64,000 bases of DNA, taken from NCBI RefSeq assembly GCF_006345805.1, contig NC_043000.1:6448001-6512000 (forward strand), given 5' to 3'. Of the stretch, positions 3,725-56,649 are shown in pieces. Made by a program: the position numbers and the translations under genes. How positions within the stretch are numbered: the stretch's first letter is position 1; every line of letters begins with the position of its first letter. This DNA is from Octopus sinensis. Lineage: Eukaryota. The notes beneath the pieces were generated by a model. The model did not search any database. It saw nothing but the letters and a program-made list of their open reading frames with translations, and was not told the DNA's origin.

Positions 3725-3905
3725 GTTCTATATTTAAGAGATGAGGAATTATATCCATTATTTACATTTGACGGATATTTGTCCTCATCTTGTTTGTTGT
3801 TAGCACAACGTTTCGGCTGGTATACCCTCCATCCTTCATCAGGTGTCTTGGGGAAATTTCGAACCTGGATTCTCATCCCCAAGGTATTTTTCGATGTTGT
3901 TGTTG

Positions 3906-3944
<39 letters not shown>

Positions 3945-4237
3945 TCACTGCCTGGAATCAAACTCGGAATCTTGGGGTTAGTAGCCCGGGCATATGTCAT
4001 AGTGGTTAAGAGCATGGGCTACTAACCCCAAGATTCCAAGTTCAATTCCAGGCAGTGACCTGAATAATAATAATAACAACAACAACAACATTGAAAACTA
4101 TCTTAGGAATGAGAATCCAGGTTCAAAATTTCCCCAAGACACCTGATGAAGGCTGGAGGGTGTATCAGCTGAAACATTATGTTAATAACAAACGAGATGA
4201 GGACAAATATCCATCAAATGTAAATAGTGTAAATAAT
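3725..4237 (+). mobile_element. Fold-back non-autonomous retroelement: tRNA-like head plus Penelope-type tail with hammerhead-like motif
   Basis: Arms ~3770-3987 and ~4016-4225 are reverse complements. The centre has A-box-like TAGTGGTTAAGAGC and B-box-like GTTCAATTCC. Both arms carry CTGATGA...GAAAC. Flanked by (TA)n. Confidence 0.7.
3802..3847 (-). ncRNA. Minimal type-I hammerhead-like motif (C3-G8)
   Basis: gacac-CUGAUGA-a-ggaugg(agggUAUA)ccagcc-GAA-ACGU-U-gugcu. A more decayed inverted copy lies at 4138-4183 (+). Confidence 0.65.
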
Positions 4238-12158: not shown

Positions 12159-12212
<54 letters not shown>

Positions 12213-12216
<4 letters not shown>

Positions 12217-12818
12217 AATATGTTACATTACTCGATAGTCAACATAAAACTTTGAGTTTCAGATGCCGAAGTGGAAATCCACAACACCATCTCTTCGGTT
12301 ATCTGGAAGGTGCGGTCTATACGACATGGAGAGATAGCTTATCTGGAAAAGCAGCTTAGACCCTACTACATGTCTAAATACAAGGACAGAACTTTTCGGA
12401 TCATGCCCACATGTGACTAAATTTCTGTTACGTTTTTGGTCCCCTAAAGAAAACAGATAGAACATGCTTTCTATGTTATGTCCCAAGAAGACTTTATATA
12501 TTTTTATATATATTTTTATATATTTTTTATGTATTTTTATATAATTTTTATGACAAAAAATGCGAGCAATGTATAAGTACGCAGGCAAGCAGAGTTATAA
12601 CACAGTAATTTCCCTTTATTTAACGGTATTTTTTCATAGCGTTTTCAAATAGCCAGATAACCGAAGAGATGGTGTTGTGGATTTCCACTTCGGCATCTGA
12701 AACTCAGAGTTTTATCTTGACTATCGAGTAATATAACATATTATTGTATAGATAAATTTCCTCTATTTACATAATATTGAGGTCTCTTTCTTTCTTTTGT
12801 TATCTTAACATTTTATCA

Positions 12819-13437: not shown

Positions 13438-13751
13438 CTAGCCCTTTATTTTGTACCAGGTACCAATTTCTTTCCGTGAATGTCTCACCATTTCTTCCCA
13501 ATGATATTTAGATTTTTTATCAAATTTTGCTCCAACATAGATACGGCCAATTAAATAACCAGATTTCTCATCTCTCTTGTTATGGTGCAGCACGGAGATG
13601 ATGAAATAAATGTTTTCAAGCTGATTGTTTGGTACATCAAAAATGTAGGTCTCGTTAAAAATCGGGTTGCCATTTGTTGCATTTCTTAAGGAAGTTTTTG
13701 TTTTTTTCATTGCTCTCCCATCACTCATCAAAGCAACACGGACATAGGCAT
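13438..13751 (-). CDS. Synaptotagmin-family gene, terminal exon E (rest of C2B)
   Basis: ctcctttcag|AT GCC TAT GTC gives (D)AYVRVALMSDGRAMKKTKTS...NPIFNETYIFDVP...IGRIYVG...HWEEMVRHSRKEIGTWYKIKG*. This is the synaptotagmin C-terminal HW..M/W-H-like motif, ending in TAG at 13438-13440. Confidence 0.93.
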
Positions 13752-14559
13752 CTGAAAGGAGAGTGATACAAAATGTTTGATTAAACAATGAGCATAAAAT
13801 GTCAACAACACAGGAGAGAGAAATTTGAACAAATATCGAACTAGTTTAACACTTAAAGGTTGTACATATATACGAGAGGGTACTGGAAAGTTTGTGGCTT
13901 TAAGGGTCTCATGAAAGGCCTGGTTGGAGAACCAACCTTCCGAGTTCTTTTACAGGGCTTAGAAAAACTGAAGGACCACAGCAATAAGTATGTGAATCTG
14001 AGAGGGGAATATGTTGAATAAAATCATAGCTGATCCTCTTGTATTTTCTTTTACCCAAAGCCGAGAACTTTTCTGCCCCGTCTCCAAGATAAAAATTATA
14101 CAAACATATGTACATACATAAATAGATGTGTGTGTGTGTGTGTGTGTGTAACATATGGTATAATTATAAACTGGGTGAATTTTTACCATTTCTCTGCGGA
14201 CTGAAAAAATGATGAACGACCATAATCGATTTTCAAATTTATTTGGGTTCTCATCAGAGGAGACATCATTCTGACAATCTCCAGAGAAACAAGCAGCCAA
14301 ACTGTTTATACACTCAACAAATGCAGCAGTTACTCTATGAAGGAATCCCTAGAATTTGCATTGCAAGATTCCTGATGTGAAACCATGTGCTGAAACAGGT
14401 GTTGTTGTATTTTGGGATGGTCATTTTTTTTTCTTTTTGCCAAATAAACACATCCACTATATATATGAAATAAGTACTAGGCTTAAAAAAGTCGATTTGT
14501 TTGCTTAAAGGTGATGCTCCAGCATGGCTGCAGTCAAATGACTGAAACAAGTAAAAAGA

Positions 14560-14607
<48 letters not shown>

Positions 14608-14664
14608 TCTTTTTACTTGTTTCATATATGTGTATATATACATATATATATATATACACATATA

Positions 14665-15010
14665 TATATATTTTCACTTGTTTATTACGGTTCTTATTTT
14701 AACTCATGTCTAATGTCCGGAAACCTTTCGTCATACATCTGTGACCTCTTCAGCGATACTTTCTGTCCTCCTGTATGCTCCTGTGTGCTCCTCATGTGTT
14801 TCTACAAATGCACACAGGAATACAGATGCAAACGCATGTGCATATAAGGATACACATCATAGAACACAATGGACTAAGTGGAGCAGGAGCACACACACGG
14901 ACAGAAAGTGTTGCTGAAGAGGTCACAGATGTGTGACAAAAGATTTCTGGACATTGGATATGAGTTAAAATAAAAACAGTAATAAATGAGTGAAGAACAA
15001 ATATATAATG
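14665..15010. mobile_element. Fold-back Penelope-type tail with hammerhead-like cores
   Basis: ~14670-14795 is inverted relative to ~14880-15005. Core CUGAAGA-g-guca(...)ugac-GAAA occurs at 14714-14758 (-) and 14909-14953 (+). Stem I is weak. Confidence 0.55.
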
Positions 15011-15231
15011 TGTGTGCTTACTTGGAAAAAAAACCCAAAACAATTGACCATACTGAAATACAACAATATGTATATATATAAACAGCCGAAATCTGTGATG
15101 AGGAATCGGTTTCTGACTGAAGAACGAAGGGTTTGAATGACCCGTCTGTCTCTTATGTTTGTCCCTTCGTGTATTTCACGTTATTTATATATGTAAAGGT
15201 TTATTTTATATTATATATACATATGTATATA

Positions 15232-15272
<41 letters not shown>

Positions 15273-15307
15273 CACATATATGAAACAAGTAAAAAGAATA
15301 TGTATAT

Positions 15308-15362
<55 letters not shown>

Positions 15363-15525
15363 GTATTCTTTTTACTTGTTTCAATCATTTGACTGCAGCC
15401 ATGCTGGAGCACCACCTTTAATCATACAAATCGACTTTTGTCTCTTTTACAGACCTGCTAAGTTACGCGCACATAAACGCACCAACACCAGTTGTCAAGC
15501 AGTGATGGGGTTGACAAATATAGAT

Positions 15526-15763: not shown

Positions 15764-15834
<71 letters not shown>

Positions 15835-15836
<2 letters not shown>

Positions 15837-16300
15837 CAACAAGAGGCTTCCAAATAGGAAAGTCTTGTGCTAGAAAGAGCAGTAGAAAACTCAAACCACC
15901 AATTAAGGATAAATTCTCAAGAGGAATGAAAATTAAAAACGTTTACCATCTCAATTATTTTCCAGACCATGGTTTCTAACTATTTCCAGCAAAAAAATAT
16001 TTGCTGAAGGCTAGTCTTCATCAGTGGGAAGCCTTTGGATTTCAAATATACATACAGCCAGATCCATATGTAAAACTAACTGCCTGTACATCCTAACCTT
16101 TCAGACCACTGCACAGACACAGATTATACCTTTCGAGAATTTATCCTTAATTGGTGGTTTGATTTTTCTACTGCTCTTTCTAGCACAAGGCTTTCCTATT
16201 TGGAAGCCTCTTGTATTTCTATGTGAATAATATATAGTCTAATGACTAATTCATTTTTGTAATAGGCCATTGGTAATAATAATTTCTTATTACCCTATTG

Positions 16301-18260: not shown

Positions 18261-20996
18261 ATATATGAAGAGCTTCTTTCAGTTTTCATCCACCAAATCC
18301 ATTCACAAGGTTTTGGCCAGCCCGAGACTATAGTAGTAGACCCTTCAGGGGACTGAACCAGGAACCATGTGGTTGGGAAGCAAGCGCTTCTTACTGCACA
18401 GTCATGTCTGTGCCGATAATGAAACATTTTCAAAATATTTCCATCTGTATTACATTTCAATCAGTCTGGTACTTAATTGACTTCAGGTGTCTTATTAATA
18501 GATGTGTACGTAGTATTATATTGGGTTAAGACTATGTATTATGTAACTGACACTGGCATTTTGCAGTTATGACGACAAGGACTCCAGTTTATTTTACCAA
18601 CAGAACAGCCTGCTTGTGAAATTAACATGCAAGATACATGCACCCTTAACATAGTTCTCAGGGAGACTCACCGTGAGACAGAATGTGACAAGGCTGGCCC
18701 TTAGAAATATAGGTTCTACTCATTTTTGTCAGCTGAGTAGAGTGGGGCAATATGAAATAAAGTGTCTTGTTTAAGGACACAATGCATCACTGAGAATTGA
18801 ACTCATGACCATATGATTGCGAGCTGAATACCCTAACTGCTAAGCCACACTTTGTACACATACAGGAATGTGTTATGTACTCATAGAGGAATGAAACACT
18901 TGATAATTGGAGATCAAACCACTCAAAGTGTATTCTAGATATAAATTTTTAAAAAGTGTTCTGCTTGAAAGGTGAGATTATTAGTCAAAACAATTGTAAC
19001 ATTTTATGGAATAAATCTTGAAGCAGACAAAGCTATAAATAATAGTGTGTAAATATTGGGTTGAAAAAGAAACCCCCCTACTTTTTAGATAAAAAAAGTC
19101 AAAGGCTGCCCTTGGGATGTGAACCCACATCTCTTTTATGCATGACAGATGATCTACCGTTGGACCAAAGCAGTTCTCTGAAATTCTCTATCCATTTTAG
19201 AAGCTTTGTTCTTACCAGTGAAAATTGTATGGTGTTGACATCATAAGAATTTATAAACTTTTGAGAGAATGTAGAATAATTTTTATTTTGGAAGAGATCT
19301 CAAAGCACAAATAAAACTATAAATAACATCAGGTAAATCTAGGATGCATCTCAGCAATTTGCTTAAATATTTTCTTTTGTAAGGGAGAGGATTGATACCG
19401 TATTTACTTATTTTGTAATAATCCCTTTTACTAAAGGCACAAGGCCTGAAATTTGTGAAGAGGGGGCTAGTTGATTACATCAACCTCAGTGTTTCACTGG
19501 TACTTAATTTATCGACCCCAGAAAGATGAAAGCAAAGTTGACCTTGGTGAAATTTGAACTCAGAACGTAAAGACGGATGAAATACCTATTTCTTTACTAC
19601 CCACACGGGGTTAAACACAGAGGGGACGAACAAGGACAGACAAACGGAATAAGTCGATTATATTGACCCCAGTGCATAACTGGTACTTATTTAATCGACC
19701 CCGAAAGGATGAAAGGCAAAGTCGACCTCGGCAGAATTTGAACTCAGAATGTAGTGGCAGACGAAAGCATTTTGCCCGATGTGCTAACCACTCTGCCAGC
19801 TTGCCACCTTACTTATTTTGTAATGATAACAACAATAATGATGATTTCAAATTTTGGCAAAAGGCCAGCAATTTTGAAAGAGAATGAAAGTCAGTTACAT
19901 AGACCCCAGTGCTCAGCTGGTACTTATTTCATAGAACCCAAAAGGATGAAAGGCAAAGTCAACCCTGGCAACATTCAAACTCAGAATGTAAAGAGATGAA
20001 ATATTGCTAAGCATTTTGCCCAGTGTGCTAACAATGCTGTCAGCTCACCACCTTAATAACAATAATAATATTCCAATAACATATATCTATTTTGAATTAG
20101 CCTTTTAGCATTAAAACCAGCCGTATCCAACCCAAATATTATACCTGTTTTATGTTCATACCAGACAAATTTGGTCTTTCACATGTAGTATCATCCTACA
20201 TGTATCATTCTAGCCTCTAACATGTATCTTTCTATATATCATACAATGTCAATCTAAAAATACACTATCATATCATTTAAATCTTAAAAGCCATGAGATA
20301 ACGAATGATAAACTTAAAACAATGTGAACAAATAATGACAAAGTTATCTGAGTGCTAACGGGTTAAATTACCTTGTGAGTGTAATTTATTTATTTGTGGA
20401 AATCAGATAACTTCTTTCAAATCAGAAGTTACTGCTAATTCATTTTTTGTTTTCGTTTTTGTTTTCAAATCAGAAAGAACAAAAGAGAGAAAGAGACATT
20501 GTTGGTTCATGATGTGCTACACAGACACAGAAGTGCCAGCAGCCAGACTTGTCCCAGATATGTGCAGATTGAGGATGGAAATTTTCTGCACAGACTTATT
20601 ACTGCGTCTGAGTATTGCTCACTTGTGGGGTTGTACAATTGTTGTTATATGAACGACATCTAATCAAGTCTGTTAATCAAGTATGACACCTAGTCAAGTC
20701 TATTAGGAAGTAATTACAACATGGAAGGTTCATCTTTGCCATTCAAAAGCGAAAGTCTGTTAACTTCATTTAATTATTTATTACTTGGTGCCAAAATGTT
20801 CATTGTATTGTCCGTGACCTGGTCACTAGCATAATTCCACTGCAACAGATCTGAAACTAGGTTTTTGGCCAATATGTATAAGCCTTGGGGTTATAACACC
20901 AAATAATAAGTGATCAAGTGAAGCTGACAGCTTTTGTGTGTTTTTCGAAAAGCTAAAGTGAGTCTTCAAAACAGTAATTATTTTAGTTTCAGGACA

Positions 20997-25876: not shown

Positions 25877-25908
<32 letters not shown>

Positions 25909-26004
25909 CACACACATACATACATACATATGTGCATGTGTGTGTGTGTATTGCTGCCTGTGTATGTATGTATGTATATATATATATATATTTATATATA
26001 TGTG

Positions 26005-26322
26005 AAGGCACATGGCTCAGTGGTTTGAGCGTTGATCTTACGATCGTGAGGTTGTGAGTTCGAACCCTGGACTGGGCTGTGTGTTGTGTTCTTGAGCAAG
26101 ACACTTTATTTCCCGTTGCTCCAGTTCACTCAGCTGGCAAAAATGAGTTGCGACATCACAGGTGCGCTGGAATGCACTGGTGGCATGGAGAGAGGAGGCC
26201 GGTATGCATGGGTGACTGCTGGTCTTCATGTGTCTTCCATAAACAACCTTGCCCAGACTTGTGCCTGGGAGGGTAACTTTCTAGGTGCAATCCCATGATC
26301 AGTCATGACCAAAGGGGATCTC
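26005..26322 (+). mobile_element. tRNA-derived SINE
   Basis: A box TGGCTCAGTGGT and B box GTTCGAACCC, followed by 'cttgagcaagacacttta'. Related heads lie at ~34180-34437, ~35420-35708 (-) and ~56757-57031 (-). Confidence 0.75.
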
Positions 26323-26324
26323 AA

Positions 26325-26383
<59 letters not shown>

Positions 26384-26405
26384 ATATATATATATATATA
26401 TAAAA

Positions 26406-26436
<31 letters not shown>

Positions 26437-26439
<3 letters not shown>

Positions 26440-26862
26440 CGGAGATGTACTCGCATAGCAAGTAATTTGATCTGAGATCGTGTGCTGAAACGAAGACAAT
26501 TGCAGCATGGAAGGTGTTTGTAAGCCATTTAAGAAACACACAAAAGCCGTTCGATTCACTTCAACATTTAAGTTTAATTTGTCAAAATATTTTCGTCGCT
26601 AAAATCCGCAACCTGTTCACTGAAAAAATCCGTGCTGCACCTGTGATGTCGCAACTCATTTCTGCATCCGTGCAGCACGGATTTTTGTCAGTGAACAGGT
26701 TGCGGATTTTAGCGACGAAAATATTTTGACAAATTAAACTTAAATGTTGAAGTGAATCGAACGGCTTTTGTGTGTTTCTTAAATGGCTTATAAACACCTT
26801 CCACGCTGCAATTGTCTTCGTATATATATATATACATGTGTGTGTGTGTGTGTCTGTATATA

Positions 26863-26910
<48 letters not shown>

Positions 26911-27311
26911 TATATATATATATATATTACGGAGATGTACTCGCATAGCAAGTAATTTGATCTGAGATCGTGTGCTGAAACGAAGACAATTGCAGCATGG
27001 AAGGTGTTTGTAAGCCATTTAAGAAACACACAAAAGCCGTTCGATTCACTTCAACATTTAAGTTTAATTTGTCAAAATATTTTCGTCGCTAAAATCCGCA
27101 ACCTGTTCACTGACAAAAATCCGTGCTGCACCTGTGATGTCGCAACTCATTTCTGCATCCGTGCAGCACGGATTTTTGTCAGTGAACAGGTTGCGGATTT
27201 TAGCGACGAAAATATTTTGACAAATTAAACTTAAATGTTGAAGTGAATCGAACGGCTTTTGTGTGTTTCTTAAATGGCTTATAAACACCTTCCACGCTGC
27301 AATTGTCTTCG
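26437..27311. repeat. Tandem pair (~490-bp period) of a near-perfect ~330-bp fold-back element in (TA)n
   Basis: Arms 26491-26640 and 26670-26820 with a 29-nt loop. Repeated at ~26981-27311. Confidence 0.9.
26687..26730 (+). ncRNA. Minimal hammerhead-like motif, G3-C8 core variant
   Basis: guca-GUGAACA-g-guugc(ggauuuua)gcgac-GAA-AAUAUU-U-ugac. Further copies lie at 27178-27221 (+), 26581-26624 (-) and 27071-27114 (-). Confidence 0.6.
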
Positions 27312-27353
27312 TATATATATATATACATGTGTGTGTGTGTGTGTGTGTCTGTA

Positions 27354-27444
<91 letters not shown>

Positions 27445-27935
27445 AAGGTAGATAGATAGATACAGATATAAATATAGATATATATACCTACACAGATACA
27501 CACACAAACCCACACAAACATACACACATATACATATACACATACACAAACACACATATGTATGGCAGCTCTCCATCATTCAATGATGAGAATTCAGTTT
27601 TTGAATGAACCTAATTAACACACTCATTGAATTAACATGCAAGTGGCTGAGCATTGCACAGACACATGTACTCTTAATATTATTCACAAGTAGTATCAGT
27701 GTGTGATATAGAGCATAACAGGGGCTGTACCTTTTTTTTCTGAATTACTTGTATAATGAACCTGACAGGCTTCTATACAGTTTCCATCTACCCTGTTTCA
27801 CTCACAAAGTATGGCAATAGAAAATGAGGTTGCCCAAGATACGTAACATCTTGGTCAAATGTGACTTTGGGGCAAACGTCTTAGTCAACCAATCTGCACC
27901 TGTATACGTGTGCGTGTGTATGTGTTTGTGTGTAC

Positions 27936-28360: not shown

Positions 28361-28602
28361 ATATATATATATATATATATATGCATGCACACACATACAC
28401 ACACTCACTTCCTGTCCTTTTTTGTATTGTCTAACTCTCCAAATATTTTGTTGTCACCCGTTACATTCTTGTTCAATTTTGTTTTTGTTTTTCTATGCAT
28501 ACATATAGCGGCATACATACACTTTTGGTCTCCTGTATGTCAGAACATAGATATATCTATATATATAAAACTGAGAATGTCTGTCTGTCTGTCTGTGTGT
28601 TT

Positions 28603-29745
28603 CCCTAAAACTTGAGAACTACACAACCAATTTCATTCAAATTTTACACATGCCTTATTTAGGATCCGGGGAGTGTCATCGGCAAATTTTTAACTTTTTG
28701 CCTAGGGCGAGCCCACAGCAATATCATATCTTCTCCACTACGATTCCCTAAAACGTGAGAACTACACAACCAATTTCATTCAAATTTTACACATGCCTTA
28801 TTTAGGATCCGGGGAGTGTCATCGGCAAATTTTTAACTTTTTGCCTAGGGCGAGCCCACAGCAATATCATATCTTCTCCACTACGATTCCCTAAAACGTG
28901 AGAACTACACAACCAATTTCATTCAAATTTTACACATGCCTTATTTAGGATCCGGGGAGTGTCATCGGCAAATTTTTAACTTTTTGCCTAGGAGCGAGCC
29001 CACAGCAATATCATATCTTCTCCACTACGATCCCTAAAACGTGAGAACTACACAACCAATTTCATTCAAATTTTACACATGCCTTATTTAGGATCCGGGG
29101 AGTGTCATCGGCAAATTTTTAACTTTTTGCCTAGGGCGAGCCCACAGCAATATCATATCTTCTCCACTACGATTCCCTAAAACGTGAGAACTACACAACC
29201 AATTTCATTCAAATTTTACACATGCCTTATTTAGGATCCGGGGAGTGTCATCGGCAAATTTTTAACTTTTTGCCTAGGGCGAGCCCACAGCAATATCATA
29301 TCTTCTCCACTACGATTCCCTAAAACGTGAGAACTACACAACCAATTTCATTCAAATTTTACACATGCCTTATTTAGGATCGGGGAGGAGTTCATCGGCA
29401 AATTTTTAACTTTTTGCCTAGGCGAGCCCACAGCAATATCATATCTTCTCCACTACGATTCCCTAAAACGTGAGAACTACACAACAATTTCATTCAAATT
29501 TTACACATGCCTTATTTAGGGTCCGGGGAGTGTCATCGGCAAATTTTTAACTTTTTGCCTAGGGCGAGCCCACAGCAATATCATATCTTCTCCACTACGA
29601 TTCCCTAAAACGTGAGAACTACACAACCAATTTCATTCAAATTTTACATATGCCTTACTTAGAGTCCATGTAGTTTCGTGGGCAAAAAAAATGTTCAACT
29701 TCTTGCCTAGGGCGAGCCCATAGCAATATCATATCTTCTCCACTA
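28603..29745 (+). repeat. Tandem array, 8 x 143 bp
   Basis: The unit ccctaaaacgtgagaactacacaacc...ctccactacgatt starts at 28603, 28746, 28889, 29032, 29175, 29318, 29461 and 29603. Units are nearly identical; the last one diverges. Confidence 0.95.
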
Positions 29746-40425: not shown

Positions 40426-40481
<56 letters not shown>

Positions 40482-40483
<2 letters not shown>

Positions 40484-41771
40484 GAACACTAACAGCTTAT
40501 TTTGTGGGTATGATAGAAAGTTTCAGCTGTCTGTGGACAGCAGACTAAGGTGGCACTTGTTTACTGGTCATGTTTCAAGAATCCTACAAAGAATTCTTGC
40601 AGTTCTAAGCAATGTTGATTTTTGTAGGTGTTCTATCTTCACACTTATACCAATCTTTTTTAGCCATGTTGGTAGGGGAATGCTGATACTTCCAAGTGGT
40701 AGTTGAGCATTGATCATTATTATTGTTGTTGTTGTTATTTACTTTCAGTCTGCATGTTTGTTTCAGTCACTTGTTCCCTAGGACAAGTGAAGGTTAAGAG
40801 ATGTTACCCAGTTCCCTAAGGCAGGTGAAGGTTAAGAGATTTTACAGTATAACTGAAAGCCTGGGGAGAGCAGTAGCAAAATACCTCTGTATAATACAAT
40901 ATAAGCATTTAAATTGATAAGGTTTTTCTAAGGATGTGGGCAGTACTTGTCAGCATAATCTTTTGGATTTCTTTGAGACATGGTTCTCCTGGGATGTTGT
41001 CTAGATGTTTCTGACATCCCTTTTTCTTTTATTATATCTAGGGCACCTACAATAACAGGAACAGTTTTTGCTTTAAGATGCCACATCTGTTTTATTTCAA
41101 TTTCCAGGTCCTTATATTTATTAAGTTTGTCAAATTCCTTTACAGATATATTTTTATCAGTGGGAACACTTACATTTATTAGTCTACAAGTATCTTCTTC
41201 CCTGTCTTTAATAATTATGTCTGATCAATTAACCTGGATTGTTCTGTCAGTATTGACTGGAAAATCCCAGAAGATGGTAACATTTTTACCTTCAATGACT
41301 GGCTCAGGATGATGGTCATACTAGTTAGTAGGAGTGCTGATTTGTAGTGTTTACATATTTTCCAATGTAAATAATGTCCTACCCTACCATGGCAATTTTT
41401 GTATTCATTTGATGTCAGCACAGGACATCCTGAAATGAGATGATCTATTGTTTTGTCAAATGTGTAGCAGAATCTGCTGTTAGGGTCAATACCATTTTGG
41501 AGAACATTAGCCTGATCATTTCTGGCAAGCAAGCTTTGATCTTGTGCAGCCAATATGAAGCCTTCAGTTTCTGATTTCAATCCTGATCTTCTCAGCCATA
41601 GATGGGCTATTGCTTGGTCTACATCAGCATTTTGACTTCAAAGAATATATTGTGCACACAGGGCTTCTGGCTCCACTACTCCTCAATTTTGGTTCTGCCC
41701 ATTCTTTTTTGCAGTCTGCATGAATTGTTATTATCATTACTATTATTATTATTATTATATTATTATTATTA

Positions 41772-41809
<38 letters not shown>

Positions 41810-43075
41810 GAACACTAACAGCTTATTTTGTGGGTATGATAGAAAGTTTCAGCTGTCTGTGGACAGCAGACTAAGGTGGCACTTGTTTACTGGTCATGTT
41901 TCAAGAATCCTACAAAGAATTCTTGCAGTTCTAAGCAACGCTGATTTTTGTAGGTGTTCTATCTTCACTCTTATACCAATCTTTTTTAGCCATGTTGGTA
42001 GGGGAATGCTGATACTTCCAAGTGGTAGTTGAGCATTGATCATTATCATTGTTGTTGTTGTTGTTGTTGTTATTTACTTTCAGTCTGCATGTTTGTTTCA
42101 GTCACTTGTTCCCTAGGACAAGTGAAGGTTAAGAGATGTTACCCAGTTCCCTAAGGCAGGTGAAGGTTAAGAGATTTTACAGTATAACTGAAAGCCTGGG
42201 GAGAGCAGTAGCAAAATACCTCTGTATAATACAATATAAGCATTTAAATTGATAAGGTTTTTCTAAGGATGTGGGCAGTACTTGTCAGCATAATCTTTTG
42301 GATTTCTTTGAGACATGGTTCTCCTGGGATGTTGTCTAGATGTTTCTGACATCCCTTTTTCTTTTATTATATCTAGGGCACCTACAATAACAGGAACAGT
42401 TTTTGCTTTAAGATGCCACATCTGTTTTATTTCAATTTCCAGGTCCTTATATTTATTAAGTTTGTCAAATTCCTTTACAGATATATTTTTATCAGTGGGA
42501 ACACTTACATTTATTAGTCTACAAGTATCTTCTTCCCTGTCTTTAATAATTATGTCTGATCAATTAACCTGGATTGTTCTGTCAGTATTGACTGGAAAAT
42601 CCCAGAAGATGGTAACATTTTTACCTTCAATGACTGGCTCAGGATGATGGTCATACTAGTTAGTAGGAGTGCTGATTTGTAGTGTTTACATATTTTCCAA
42701 TGTAAATAATGTCCTACCCTACCATGGCAATTTTTGTATTCATTTGATGTCAGCACAGGACATCCTGAAATGAGATGATCTATTGTTTTGTCAAATGTGT
42801 AGCAGAATCTGCTGTTAGGGTCAATACCATTTTGGAGAACATTAGCCTGATCATTTCTGGCAAGCAAGCTTTGATCTTGTGCAGCCAATATGAAGCCTTC
42901 AGTTTCTGATTTCAATCCTGATCTTCTCAGCCATAGATGGGCTATTGCTTGGTCTACATCAGCATTTTGACTTCAAAGAATATATTGTGCACACAGGGCT
43001 TCTGGCTCCACTACTCCTCAATTTTGGTTCTGCCCATTCTTTTTTGCAGTCTGCATGAATTGTTATTATCATTAC

Positions 43076-43105
<30 letters not shown>
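40482..43105 (-). repeat. Near-identical tandem duplication (~1.33 kb x 2) of two Dong/R4-like 3' fragments bounded by (TTA)n
   Basis: Units start at 40482 and 41808 and give identical ORF translations (MKSETEGFILAAQDQSL...). They differ by a few substitutions and by (GTT)n/(TTA)n length. Confidence 0.92.
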
Positions 43106-43108
<3 letters not shown>

Positions 43109-48137: not shown

Positions 48138-49467
48138 AGTAGTTGATAGTTTCCGTTACCTAGGTGACCAAGTCAGTAGCGGGGGTGGGTGCGCTGAAAG
48201 TATAACTGCTAGAGTAAGAATAGCCTGGGCAAAGTTTAGAGAGCTCTTACCCCTGCTGGTGACAAAAGGCCTCTCGCTCAAAGTAAAAGGCAGACTGTAT
48301 GATGCATGTGTACGTACAGCCATGCTACATGGTAGTGAAACTTGGGCTGTGACTGCTGAGGATTTGCGTAAGCTCGCAAGAAATGAAGCTAGTATGCTCC
48401 GATGGATGTGTAACGTCAGTGTTCATAATCAACAGAGTGTAAGTACCTTGAGAGAAAGTTGAACCTAAGAAGCATCAGTTGTTGTGTGCAAGAGAGACGT
48501 ATGCGCTGGTATGGTCATGTGATGAGAATGGCTGAAGATAGTTGTGTGCGAAAGTGCCACACCCTGGCAGTTGAGGGGACCTGTGGAAGAGGTAGACCCA
48601 GGAAAACCTGGGTCGAGGCGGTGAAGCACGACCTTCGAACTTTAGGTCTCACCAAGGAAATGACCAGTGACCGAGACCTTTGGAAGTATGCTGTGCGTGA
48701 GAAAACCCAGCAAGACCAGTGAGAACAGTCAAAATCAAAATCAAACCAAATTGAGGTCGATCAACATCAGGGCCCCCGTGCAGGTGACACGTAAAAGCAC
48801 CATCCGTTCGTGGCCATTTGCCAGCCCTGTCTGGCCCCCATGTCGGTGACATGTAAAAGCACCATCCGTTCGTGGCCGTTTGCCAGCTCTGTCTGGCCCC
48901 CGTGCCGGTGACACGTAAAAGCACCATCCGTTCGTGGCCGTTTGCCAGCCCTGTCTGGCCCCCATGTCGGTGACATGTAAAAGCACCATCCGTTCGTGGC
49001 CGTTTGCCAGCCCTGTCTGGCCCCCATGTCGGTGACATGTAAAAGCACCATTCGTTCGTGTCCGTTGCCAGCCTCGCCTGGCCCCTGTGCCGGTGACACG
49101 TAAAAGCACCATCCGTTTCGTGGCCGTTTGCCAGCTCTGTCTGGCCCCCGTGTTGGTGGCACGTAAAAGCACCATCCGTTCGTGTCCGTTGCCAGCCTTG
49201 CCTGGCCCCGTGCCGGTGACACGTAAAAGCACCATCCGTTCGTGGCCGTTTGCCAGCTCTGTCTGGCACCTGTGCGGGTGGCACGTAAAAAGCACCCACT
49301 ACACTCACGGAGTGGTTGGCGTTAGGAAGGGCATCCAGCCGTAGAAACACTGCCAGATCTGACTGGGCCTGATGAAGCCTTCCAGCTTCACAGACCCCAG
49401 TTGAACCGTCCAACCCATGCTAGCATGGAGAACGGACGCTAAATGATGATGATGATGATGATGATGA
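48138..49467 (+). mobile_element. RTE LINE 3' portion with expanded ~60-bp tandem repeat in the 3' UTR
   Basis: VVDSFRYLGD...LSLKVKGRLYDACVRTAMLHGSETWAV...MRWYGHVMRM...GRGRPRKTW, then about 9 repeat units at 48775-49295 and a (GAT)n tail. Inserted in (TA)n. Confidence 0.92.
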
Positions 49468-50277
49468 TATATATATATATATATATAGTTAATCCAAACA
49501 TGAACAGGCAAGAAAAATCAACATGAGGACGTGGAATAAGTACAGTGTTATTGGACGCTCAGGAAAGAAAGAAAAGAAAGAGTATTATTTCACATTTTGA
49601 GCAGAGTTCTTCATCAGAAATAGAGAAAAAGTCCAAAGAAAGAAAGAAGGAGAAAGAAAATCACCAACGATTCACACACGGTCACATATTGAAATGTATA
49701 TATATATAATATGGTGGCACGTAAAAAGCACCCACTACACTCTCGGAGTGGTTGGCGTTAGGAAGGGCATCCAGCCGTAGAAACACTGTCAGATTTGACT
49801 GGGCCTGATGAAGCCTTCTGTTTACTGCTGTGATTTTTGCTACTAAGGTATCGGTTAAACTTTTGATTAATCTACTACAAGATTATTCATCTTTCTATTT
49901 CACATATATATATATATATATATAATCCATTTGTGACCGTTGCCAGTGCCGTCCCGACTGGCCTCGTGCCGGTGGCACATAAAAAGCACCATCCATTTGT
50001 GGCTGTTGCCAGCCTCACCTGGCCCCCGTGCCGGTGGCACATAAAAAGCACCATCCGATCGTGGCCGTTTGCCAGACTCGTCTGGCACGTAAAAAGCACC
50101 GACTACACTCATGGAGTGGTTGGCGTTAGGAAGGGCATCCAGCCGTAGAAACATTGCCAGATCAAACTGGGCCTGGTGCAGCCTTCTGGCTTCCCAGACC
50201 CCAGTTGAACCGTCCAACCCATGCTAGCATGGGAAGCGGATGCTAAATGATGATGATGATGATGATGATATATATAT

Positions 50278-51111
50278 AGGATCTTTTCCTTTTGAACGGC
50301 ACATGTCAACACAATTTCTAGTTAACTAAATACTTTTAAACTTCGTATACTGGTAGAATGTGTTTATAAACATCATTTTTTCTTGGCTTTATTGAGAAAA
50401 TTCTATAGTTTGTAAGATATTTCGTCTGAAATTTCAAGCATTTCGGCAATTTTAACCAATTGCTGACCTCCATTTGGGGTGAAAACATTCCGTGCTGTAT
50501 GAATATGTCTCTCGTTTAAGAAACAGATTGGGTTTATTTACATTTGCAAAGAAAAATAGATACCCTTCCCCCACCCCTAACCCTAACCCTAACCCTAACT
50601 CTAACCCTAAATCTAAAATAGATTGAAATGCAATAGATCGATACTAGGGGTATAATTATGAGTGACAATTTCATACAACACCGCTACAGAAAATGGGATT
50701 TTTTTCTAGCGGTGTCAAATGAAAATGTCACCCATAATTATACCCCTAGTATCGATCTATTGCATTTCAATCTATTTTAGATTTAGAGTTAGAGTTAGGA
50801 TTAGGGTTAGGGGTGGGGGAAGGGTATCTTTTTTCTCTTCGCAAATGTAAATAAACCCAATCTGTTTCTTAAACGAGAGACATATTCATACAGCACGGAA
50901 TGTTTTCACCCCAAATGGAGGTCAGCAATTGGTTAAAATTGCCGAAATGCTTGAAATTTCAGACGAAATATCTTACAACATATAGAATTTTCTCAATAAA
51001 GCCAAGAAAAAATGATGTTTTATAAACACATTCTACCAGTATATGAAGTTTAAAAGTGTTTAGTTAACTAGAAATTGTGTTGACATGTGCCGTTCAAAAG
51101 GAAAAGATCCT
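50278..51111. mobile_element. ~830-bp palindromic (fold-back) MITE-like element containing (CCCTAA)n/(TTAGGG)n
   Basis: TA|ggatcttttccttttgaacggcac...gtgccgttcaaaaggaaaagatcc|TA. The arms are ~410 bp and near-identical, centred at ~50695. Telomere-like repeats lie at 50575-50610 and ~50780-50812. Confidence 0.88.
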
Positions 51112-51127
51112 ATATACATATATTATA

Positions 51128-51440
51128 TATACAGTGTACATTTAAATACATGTGATGGCCATAATCGGACATCTAAACTGCTAGAAGGAGTAGTTAAAAT
51201 CCAAACCAGGAAATCGATGGTAAATGTTTTTATTTTTCATCCCCTTTTGAAACTACCCCTAATTGTGGTTTGGATTTTAACTACTCCTTCTAGCGGTTTA
51301 GATCTCTGATTATGGCCTTCTCTTATGTGTTTAAATGTACACTGTATATATAATGAATAATATATAGTCTATTGACTAGTTTTTCTACACGGTAGGCCAC
51401 GGTGGTAAAAAATTTCTAAATAATATTTTACTACTCTGAA

Positions 51441-55754: not shown

Positions 55755-56068
55755 TGTGTGTGTGTGTCTGTGTGTGTGCATGTGTGCACATGTGTGTGTC
55801 TAGGAGTGTATGTTTGACCCCAGCATCACTGTCACTGCTTGATTACTGATGTTGGTTTCTTTATATCCCTGTAACTCAGTGGTTCAGCAAAAGAACCTAG
55901 TAGAATAAGTGCCAGTCTTCAAAAACAAAAAAGAAATAAGAATTGGGATTGATTTCTTGGACTAAACTCTTCAAGGCTGTGCCCCAGCATGGCCACAGCT
56001 CAATAACTGTAACAAGTAAAACATGCAAAAGACAAAAGGTGATTTGTCAAAAAAATTTTAATTCTTAC

Positions 56069-56578
56069 CTCAATTGGTTCAGTGAATTCACAATCAAAAC
56101 TTTTTTCTTCCCCATTAAAAATCTTCATTTCGCAGAATTTGGACTGGGTCTCCCCTTTCACCGTATGACAAGAATAATGGTCAAAGTCACACATCTGCAA
56201 TCTCATAATGTAATTTTTCAAATGTTTTTCTTCAACAAATATGGCAAATTTTTCATTAAAAACTGGATTTTCAGTTTTACGTTTAATTCTTGTCTGAACT
56301 TCAAGGTCAAGTTTATCAAATGAAAATGATTGATGCTGTTTGTGCCGGTTGAAATTAAAAATAGATCGTTGGCTCCGATAGAGGCGGATGCGTACATAGT
56401 TGTCAACAGGTAAAGAATTTGGTTCCAATAACATCAAATCATTTGCTTTAATGATTTTGATGGTTAGTTTCTTTAGGTCTTGTTCATATTTCAGCTTATA
56501 TGATAAACGGCCCACTTTTGTTGTTTTAGTTGAGCCGTTGACTGTTGTAGAAGATGGATCTTTCTCATTTTCATCCAT
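56069..56578 (-). CDS. Synaptotagmin-family gene, exon C (C2A domain)
   Basis: ttcttacag|ATG GAT...ATT GAG|gtaag, 510 nt, phase 0/0. C2 motifs: GRLSYKLKY, LTIKIIKANDL, DNYVRIRL, QTRIKRKTENPVFNEKF, MCDFDHYS. Confidence 0.92.
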
Positions 56579-56649
56579 CTGTAAGAATTCCATGGAAAAA
56601 ATCAATTACTTTAATATACAGAAAAGAGCAACAAATACTATTTGTGAGA

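Follow-up and report, generated by a model that had tools for sequence, protein, structure and literature searches.

In the window, the whole 64-kb stretch of DNA analyzed here, the loop of a fold-back element contains a 25-base tract that is real and was most likely copied from a neighboring SINE. We propose that the tract is probably a locally templated insertion, acquired while two target-primed cDNAs of a likely Penelope-like element (PLE) were being end-joined at the insertion site. Our confidence in this reading as a whole was obtained by multiplying a high confidence that the donor was local by a more modest, still favorable one that the junction formed at integration. The loop is a scar, and no function is proposed for it.

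The element (26438-26821; Table 1) lies between (TA)n tracts and opens on the left with a 52-nt extension that has no counterpart on the right; the left arm follows, and a 29-nt loop separates it from the right arm. Its arms (26490-26640 and 26670-26821, with a 1-nt deletion near 26624) stand head-to-head, their orientation being read from the strand that carries a hammerhead-like motif. A second copy has arms of 152 nt (26980-27131 and 27161-27312) that are 99% complementary, with 29 nt between them. The arms differ at 2 of 152 nt, both differences are transitions, and both tandem units carry the two. The computed stability of the hairpin is -188 kcal/mol, and the CpG observed/expected ratio (o/e) of the arm is 1.30. 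The sole differences between the 490-bp units are the 1-nt deletion, which lies beside an A run, and microsatellite length. The arms came before the duplication, and copy 2 is either a later duplicate or an assembly artefact, so that there is one independent locus. A-to-I editing was rejected as the source of the two arm differences, which are C/T in the RNA sense, as was identity with a MITE or fold-back DNA transposon, given that the terminal inverted repeats miss one end, where the extension is found on the left only.

Table 1. Features of the fold-back locus and its donor repeat (positions counted from the first letter of the window)
Feature	Positions	Strand	Remarks
SINE-like repeat (donor)	26004-26324	+	tRNA-like head, central segment, (CA)n end
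Donor tract	26137-26165	+	exact part 26141-26165; 28/29 overall; GTGC at end, 26162-26165
(TA)n tract	26363-26437	.	left element edge, taken as insertion target; target-site duplication unreadable
Tandem duplication, 490 bp	26366-27414	.	(TA)n-bounded; later than arm divergence; real or assembly artefact
Tail, 52 nt	26438-26489	-	left arm only; edge uncertain by ~2 nt within TA tract
Left arm, copy 1	26490-26640	-	pLTR-like; RNA sense minus; GCAC end 4 nt past near-palindrome centre
Putative templated tract, copy 1	26637-26665	+	exact 26637-26661; mismatch 26662; first 4 nt overlap left arm
Near-palindrome, 17 nt	26666-26682	+	heads right arm; centre A here, T in left-arm copy
Right arm, copy 1	26670-26821	+	pLTR-like; RNA sense plus; followed by (TA)n
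Minimal type I hammerhead-like motif	26684-26733	+	7-bp stem I, G3-U-G-A-N-C8-A core, bulged base
Copy 2, whole fold-back element	26928-27312	.	tail 26928-26979; loop 27132-27160; putative templated tract 27128-27156
Copy 2 hammerhead-like motif	27068-27117	-	
Copy 2 hammerhead-like motif	27175-27224	+	

The sequence-only reading had reported an exact inverted match of 25 nt between the loop and a SINE about 480 bp upstream, beginning inside a gcac microhomology at the arm end, and both observations were borne out. Positions 26637-26661 are the reverse complement of 26141-26165 at 25/25 positions, beyond what chance would give and with a loop-to-donor distance of 472 nt. The exact run stops at both ends, and after a single mismatch at 26662 the match resumes for 3 bases, reaching 28/29 (26637-26665 against 26165-26137). 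GCAC, the 4 nt with which the match begins, also closes the left arm; the exact match supplies 21 of the loop bases, or 24 of 29 with the extension, and 273 nt separate the donor from the insertion site at the element's outer edge. The same 25-mer recurs at 27128-27152 in the second copy, an occurrence that is not independent because it lies inside the 490-bp tandem duplicate.

A chance origin of the 25-nt match was ruled out by shuffles and tile comparison across the 64 kb. When up to 3 mismatches were allowed, exactly three places in the window carried the 25-mer, and none did in each of 100 dinucleotide shuffles. In each of the 58 other 2-kb tiles, the longest exact match to the 33-nt loop-plus-overlap was 6-9 nt; 2,000 shuffled loops set against the real flanks gave exact matches of at most 13 nt, and the composition-based expectation for the loop match was ~5e-10. 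In 12 other inverted structures of the window, the loop-to-flank match never exceeded 12 nt, 2 of the 12 being PLE-like and both of these old (arms 79-83%). This control, which is weak in either direction given how few and how old its PLE-like members are, comprised 11 of 19 inverted structures listed for the window and one old pair; two of the 19 are the element itself, and six were omitted (one 561-nt nested spacer and five long-spacer inverted pairs made of distinct repeats).

The SINE that holds the donor tract has diverged relatives, to which its head and central segment align (18848-18716 and 57029-56907, both minus strand, and weakly 35698-35602, minus strand), and its body (26150-26324) matches only itself in the 64-kb window. 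The likeness of the head to A and B boxes was seen by eye, and ARAGORN returned 0 tRNA genes. Translated in one of six frames and compared with protein sets, the SINE gave either no match or 14 unscored candidates, and it had no match among phages. The hexamer GTCTTC occurs in it twice, four bases apart, at 26222-26240, a short local duplication that is possibly a small repair scar. We assume that the family usually has a longer body 3' of the tract and that in the local copy a deletion may begin near 26166, and we take it to resemble octopus CORE-SINEs. Octopus OR1 and OR2 are listed as CORE-SINEs (PMC4824008, PMC4758252; here and below, what is drawn from cited papers refers to the parts of them that were available).

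Judged by CpG, the SINE is older than the fold-back element: its o/e is 0.39 (0.40 for the window) against 1.30 for the arm. The start of the donor tract also aligns to the SINE relative at 18716-18730, which makes at least that part of the tract native SINE sequence; transfer in the reverse direction, from the loop into the SINE, was judged unlikely on this alignment, which excludes the last 16 nt. Exact matches of such length are unusual among repeats of this region: median identity is 77% across the window's 195 dispersed repeat pairs, exact 25-column non-simple windows number 199 of 24,563 (0.8%), and any such window occurs in 23 of the 195 pairs. A distant donor would need two coincidences, because a rare neighbor (~1% within 300 nt, an estimate derived from one SINE-body copy per 64 kb) would have to be joined by an unusually exact match. 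The case for a local donor is an argument from proximity and age.

Read along the top strand, the junction runs from the left arm through 21 SINE-matching bases, a mismatched C and 3 further SINE-matching bases to the full palindrome and the right arm. The left arm ends four bases past the centre of its palindrome, a T, and the palindrome of the right arm is complete, with A at its centre. A separate palindrome centre in each arm fits two separate cDNAs and would not be given by a single snap-back at the palindrome. The right arm can be aligned with an old relative of the element at 20710-20860 (~65% identical) across the palindrome and beyond it on the loop side; the anchored extension scores 3 for the left arm and 8 for the right, the latter equalled by 195 of 5,000 random sites and 149 of 5,000 shuffles (p ~0.03-0.04). 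This suggests that bases ~26659-26665 may be native element sequence matching the SINE at 6/7 by chance, in an alignment that is post hoc, weak and drawn from a single old relative; if native, these bases would explain both the mismatch at 26662 and the presence of microhomology at both ends. On the left, the switch point shares the 4-nt GCAC/GTGC; on the right, it would then share an imperfect 7-nt stretch. With a predicted -7.2 kcal/mol, the GTGC site proposed for priming ranks first in stability among 6 on the top strand within 2 kb upstream and fourth among 15 within 2 kb on both strands; window-wide, 77 of 334 sites are at least as stable, and nearer GTGC sites at 26261 and 26285 were bypassed. 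Direct pairing of the two cDNA ends via the palindrome is predicted to be feasible (-16.7 kcal/mol), and the detour through the SINE was not needed because the ends could have paired in this way, which counts against the proposed reading, as do the distance of the donor and the nearer GTGC sites. The old head-to-head relatives of the element, ~65% identical, lie at 20710-20860 (plus) and 21002-20906 (minus), and their junction is too decayed to be read.

The element is likely a head-to-head pair of 5'-truncated PLE pLTRs, an assignment made by anatomy only because the 384-nt fragment holds no reverse transcriptase (RT) or GIY-YIG endonuclease ORF. Two features of PLEs are found together in it, namely 5'-truncated repeats inverted head-to-head and a short 5' palindrome, and pLTR 5' ends and inverted junctions with 18- and 38-bp palindromes have been described (PMC3846280). 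The (TA)n on both sides corresponds to insertion into an AT-rich microsatellite, as for PLEs, and the one-sided extension of 52 nt compares with a one-end PLE tail of 30-40 bp (PMC8557442, PMC3846280). Directly 3' of the near-palindrome sits the hammerhead-like motif, whose remaining parts are G10.1-C11.1, a 5-bp stem II, GAAA and a palindromic stem III (z = -2.9). A hammerhead descriptor matched three times in the 64-kb window, each time within these arms, and not once in 30 shuffles; the fourth arm was missed, having a deletion in stem I. The putative motif fits the architecture given for minimal PLE hammerheads (PMC4209133) in its bulge 9/10.1, G10.1-C11.1 and palindromic stem III, its core being G3:C8, not C3:G8; in the available parts of that paper the only variant is U3:A8. 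The double change C3G/G8C partly restores hammerhead cleavage (PMC11167929). A natural G3:C8 core is also found in the old relative (20819-20826, minus strand), with only the variable seventh position changed.

Database comparisons of the element returned little. Rfam gave 0 matches at the gathering score across the whole window and 70 sub-threshold matches in 25900-27500, none of them to a hammerhead and all driven by hairpins or microsatellites, and microRNA-precursor labels were dismissed. The element translated in one of six frames gave one unscored candidate among protein sets and four matches to repetitive proteins at 25-39% identity, which we judged spurious. There was no match among plasmids, and two exact-pattern scans of bacterial and archaeal genomes, aimed at host contigs that had strayed into them, gave 0 and 0. 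Five motifs were each found 0 times in the supplement of PMC8557442 (584,131 characters), and six motifs 0 times in the full texts of papers.

The window is AT-rich, microsatellite-dense animal DNA, and its repeats presumably resemble those of octopus genomes. Pfam C2 domain matches lie on the minus strand at 13441-13845 and 56003-56605, and the locus is likely in an intron of a minus-strand C2-domain (synaptotagmin-like) gene, the two matches being taken as parts of a single gene. Several other repeat structures occur nearby. Another PLE-like head-to-head fold-back, of a different family, lies in (TA)n at 3748-4237 (arms of 240 columns, 83%); it has, by eye, a hammerhead core near 4145 that looks canonical but was missed by the descriptor, and a 28-nt centre with a local match of at most 8 nt. 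A tandem duplication of ~1.33 kb (98.8%; 3 substitutions and one cluster of indels in a repeat region over 1,251 columns) lies between (ATT)n tracts at 40426-43107; both it and the 490-bp duplication may stem from microsatellite recombination, or from an assembler that put haplotypes one after the other. MITE-like structures include a TA-flanked, near-perfect fold-back of 854 bp at 50268-51121 (arms of 428 columns, 95%, with a 6-nt loop), whose arms each carry (CCCTAA)n-like tracts and which adjoins a 258-bp inverted-repeat element (51110-51367), together with 12202-12757 and 15813-16236, with terminal inverted repeats of 105 and 115 nt (95% and 89%) in or beside TA tracts. The region 14487-15439 is nested, with palindromes of a SINE end plus (TA)n (14543-14624 and 15281-15383) flanking a self-inverted segment (14656-15013), and tandem arrays occur at 28601-29745 (143-bp units, x8) and 48771-49296 (62-bp units, x8.5).

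We propose the following sequence of events. The element's endonuclease would have nicked both (TA)n strands, and each 3' end would have primed reverse transcription of pLTR RNA; because the two start sites would have been 52 nt apart, the arms would be head-to-head and the tail one-sided. In vitro, both strands of the target are nicked and extended by an anole PLE, whose tail is defined by two internal RT start sites (PMC11167929). The left cDNA would have stopped inside the 17-nt RNA hairpin, leaving a GCAC end, and the right cDNA would have passed the hairpin and some further bases. One free 3' end would then have annealed by microhomology to the neighboring SINE and been extended by 21-25 nt: (i) the left end may have folded back to GTGC on the strand it belonged to, or (ii) the right end may have paired, through the imperfect 7-nt match, with the other strand or with a same-sense, minus-strand host pre-mRNA. 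Left snap-back and right pairing give the same product, and the moving end is therefore indistinguishable from sequence. Once released, the extended end would have used its newly gained microhomology to pair with the other cDNA end, and the junction would have been closed by fill-in and ligation. Later, the two arm transitions would have accumulated, and the unit would have been duplicated between TA tracts or in assembly. Polymerase theta is, by analogy, the likeliest enzyme because of the tract size and the microhomologies, with the element's RT as the alternative. The insert, 21-25 nt beyond the overlap and mapping to the flank, fits polymerase theta inserts in size and location; these are flank-templated and mostly <25 bp (PMC12426944). 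L1 ORF2p can use DNA templates (PMC11702581).

The same letters could have been written later. A seamless palindrome may have been inserted and then extruded as a cruciform, cut and opened off-centre at its hairpins, with end-joining adding filler templated by the same local donor, an order of events that we consider unlikely, though not negligibly so. Long palindromes without a spacer do extrude and are cut to hairpin-capped ends that are end-joined, and spacers lower this risk (PMC7999016); the hairpin here is very stable (-188 kcal/mol), and off-centre opening could, we infer, also yield a centre with T on the left and A on the right. The arm divergence (2/152) and the loop-donor divergence (0-1/29) are too small to order the events. 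However, a seamless palindrome could not have been the source of the bases just inside the right arm if these are native, as the old relative suggests (p ~0.03-0.04), and both hairpins would have to open with opposite handedness and without loss of arm. Closure at integration appears likely, and templated insertion from the neighboring SINE, the central claim of the sequence-only reading, is well supported by the exact inverted match, the microhomology at the arm end, the single SINE body in the window and the rarity of exact windows. Its further claim, that the loop records how fold-back PLE copies form, fared less well and is only likely, given that later repair of a palindrome centre would give the same letters and that SINE RNA or host pre-mRNA fits the orientation.

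RNA could have served as template in another way: at the hairpin, the element's RT may have jumped in trans from its own RNA to a SINE transcript that came from another place in the genome, of which it copied 21-25 nt, the neighboring SINE being a coincidence. Jumps of RTs to, and fusions with, cellular RNAs are known for R2 and L1 (PMC11702581, PMC11371274), and if the left cDNA had copied sense SINE RNA, the orientation would be as observed. Against this, the only SINE body in 64 kb lies within ~300 nt (~1%) and is identical over 25 nt despite an old-looking family, making such a jump improbable. We give still less credence to a loop that belongs to a subfamily consensus, whereby the fold-back unit captured a SINE fragment elsewhere and now moves whole. 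The alignment of the old relative does reach some bases into the SINE-matching part, which may leave the tract partly ambiguous, but it does not extend over the last 16 nt of the tract, and a consensus loop would demand a double coincidence unless this were the founding locus, which would be local templating again. Least credible is a junction created by an amplification chimera or mis-assembly: assembly is known to have difficulty with inverted PLE structures (PMC8557442), and the differences between the 490-bp units resemble consensus errors or two haplotypes in tandem, but this concern bears on the second copy and not on the junction, both arm substitutions are common to both units, the flanks continue without inversion, and the structure matches the described anatomy of PLEs.

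The origin of PLE inverted repeats has been called unresolved (PMC8557442), and self-priming on an antisense template has been proposed (PMC3846280). If flank DNA does lie in the junction, then the junction was closed at the target site here, with free 3' ends reaching ~270 nt into the flank, which is easier to reconcile with twin priming and end-joining than with a hairpin made in advance. How the family builds its fold-backs is more than a single locus can show, and this one only hints that the inverted junction was closed at the target site. As a broader and distinctly tentative proposition, which we consider possible but doubtful, fold-back PLE copies may routinely be end-joined at the target from two cDNAs, not self-primed before integration, with a measurable fraction of loops copied from up to several hundred bases away in the flank. 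If end-joining at the target is routine, loops genome-wide would read out an integration intermediate and this locus would be the first visible case, and comparing each fold-back loop with its own flanks offers a cheap genome-wide test. A specialist would find little surprise in it, since it is one fossil of a kind of repair already described for L1, R2 and double-strand breaks.

Among known systems, the element is most like the inverted pLTR structures of endonuclease-positive PLEs, including Pen2 and Pen3 of Adineta vaga (PMC3846280), Naiads (PMC8557442) and Poseidon of the anole (PMC11167929), as far as these are described in the available parts of the papers: head-to-head, 5'-truncated repeats of ~150-200 nt, with a one-end extension, a short 5' palindrome, an AT-microsatellite target and a hammerhead-like motif also in common. 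It differs from them in its tail of 52 and not 30-40 nt, its G3:C8 core and its state as a fragment without an ORF. In A. vaga the junction is a palindrome or overlap and has been read as self-priming, whereas here the palindrome copies are split by what is probably host flank DNA; host DNA captured between pLTRs has been described as kilobase spacers (PMC3846280). No report of a flank-templated PLE junction was found in the literature searched, which lacks most subscription papers.

Outside PLEs, L1 twin priming likewise joins opposite cDNAs by microhomology and uses short genomic templates, and L1 inversion junctions have features of end-joining together with templated genomic inserts (bioRxiv 2024.08.27.596794, PMC11702581). 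In contrast to L1, the two arms here begin close to one and the same end of the RNA and overlap nearly completely, there is no poly(A), and the element is not L1; the 22 templated L1 insertions described in the available text typically came from within 15 bp of the site (bioRxiv 2024.08.27.596794), compared to 273 nt here. Polymerase theta end joining (PMC12426944) resembles the proposed event in its flank-derived insert of ~25 nt and in the microhomology found where priming would have begun and, likely, where the end was rejoined; the donor in our case lies hundreds of bases off, and the role of the enzyme is putative. In R2 snap-back 5' junctions (PMC11371274), the cDNA 3' end primes on the cDNA itself and, in fewer cases, on target DNA close by, in a site-specific system with a single cDNA in cultured cells, whereas the junction described here is a germline fossil between two arms. 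By analogy with these systems, we regard this junction scar in a PLE-like element as a new instance of a kind known from L1, R2 and double-strand breaks.
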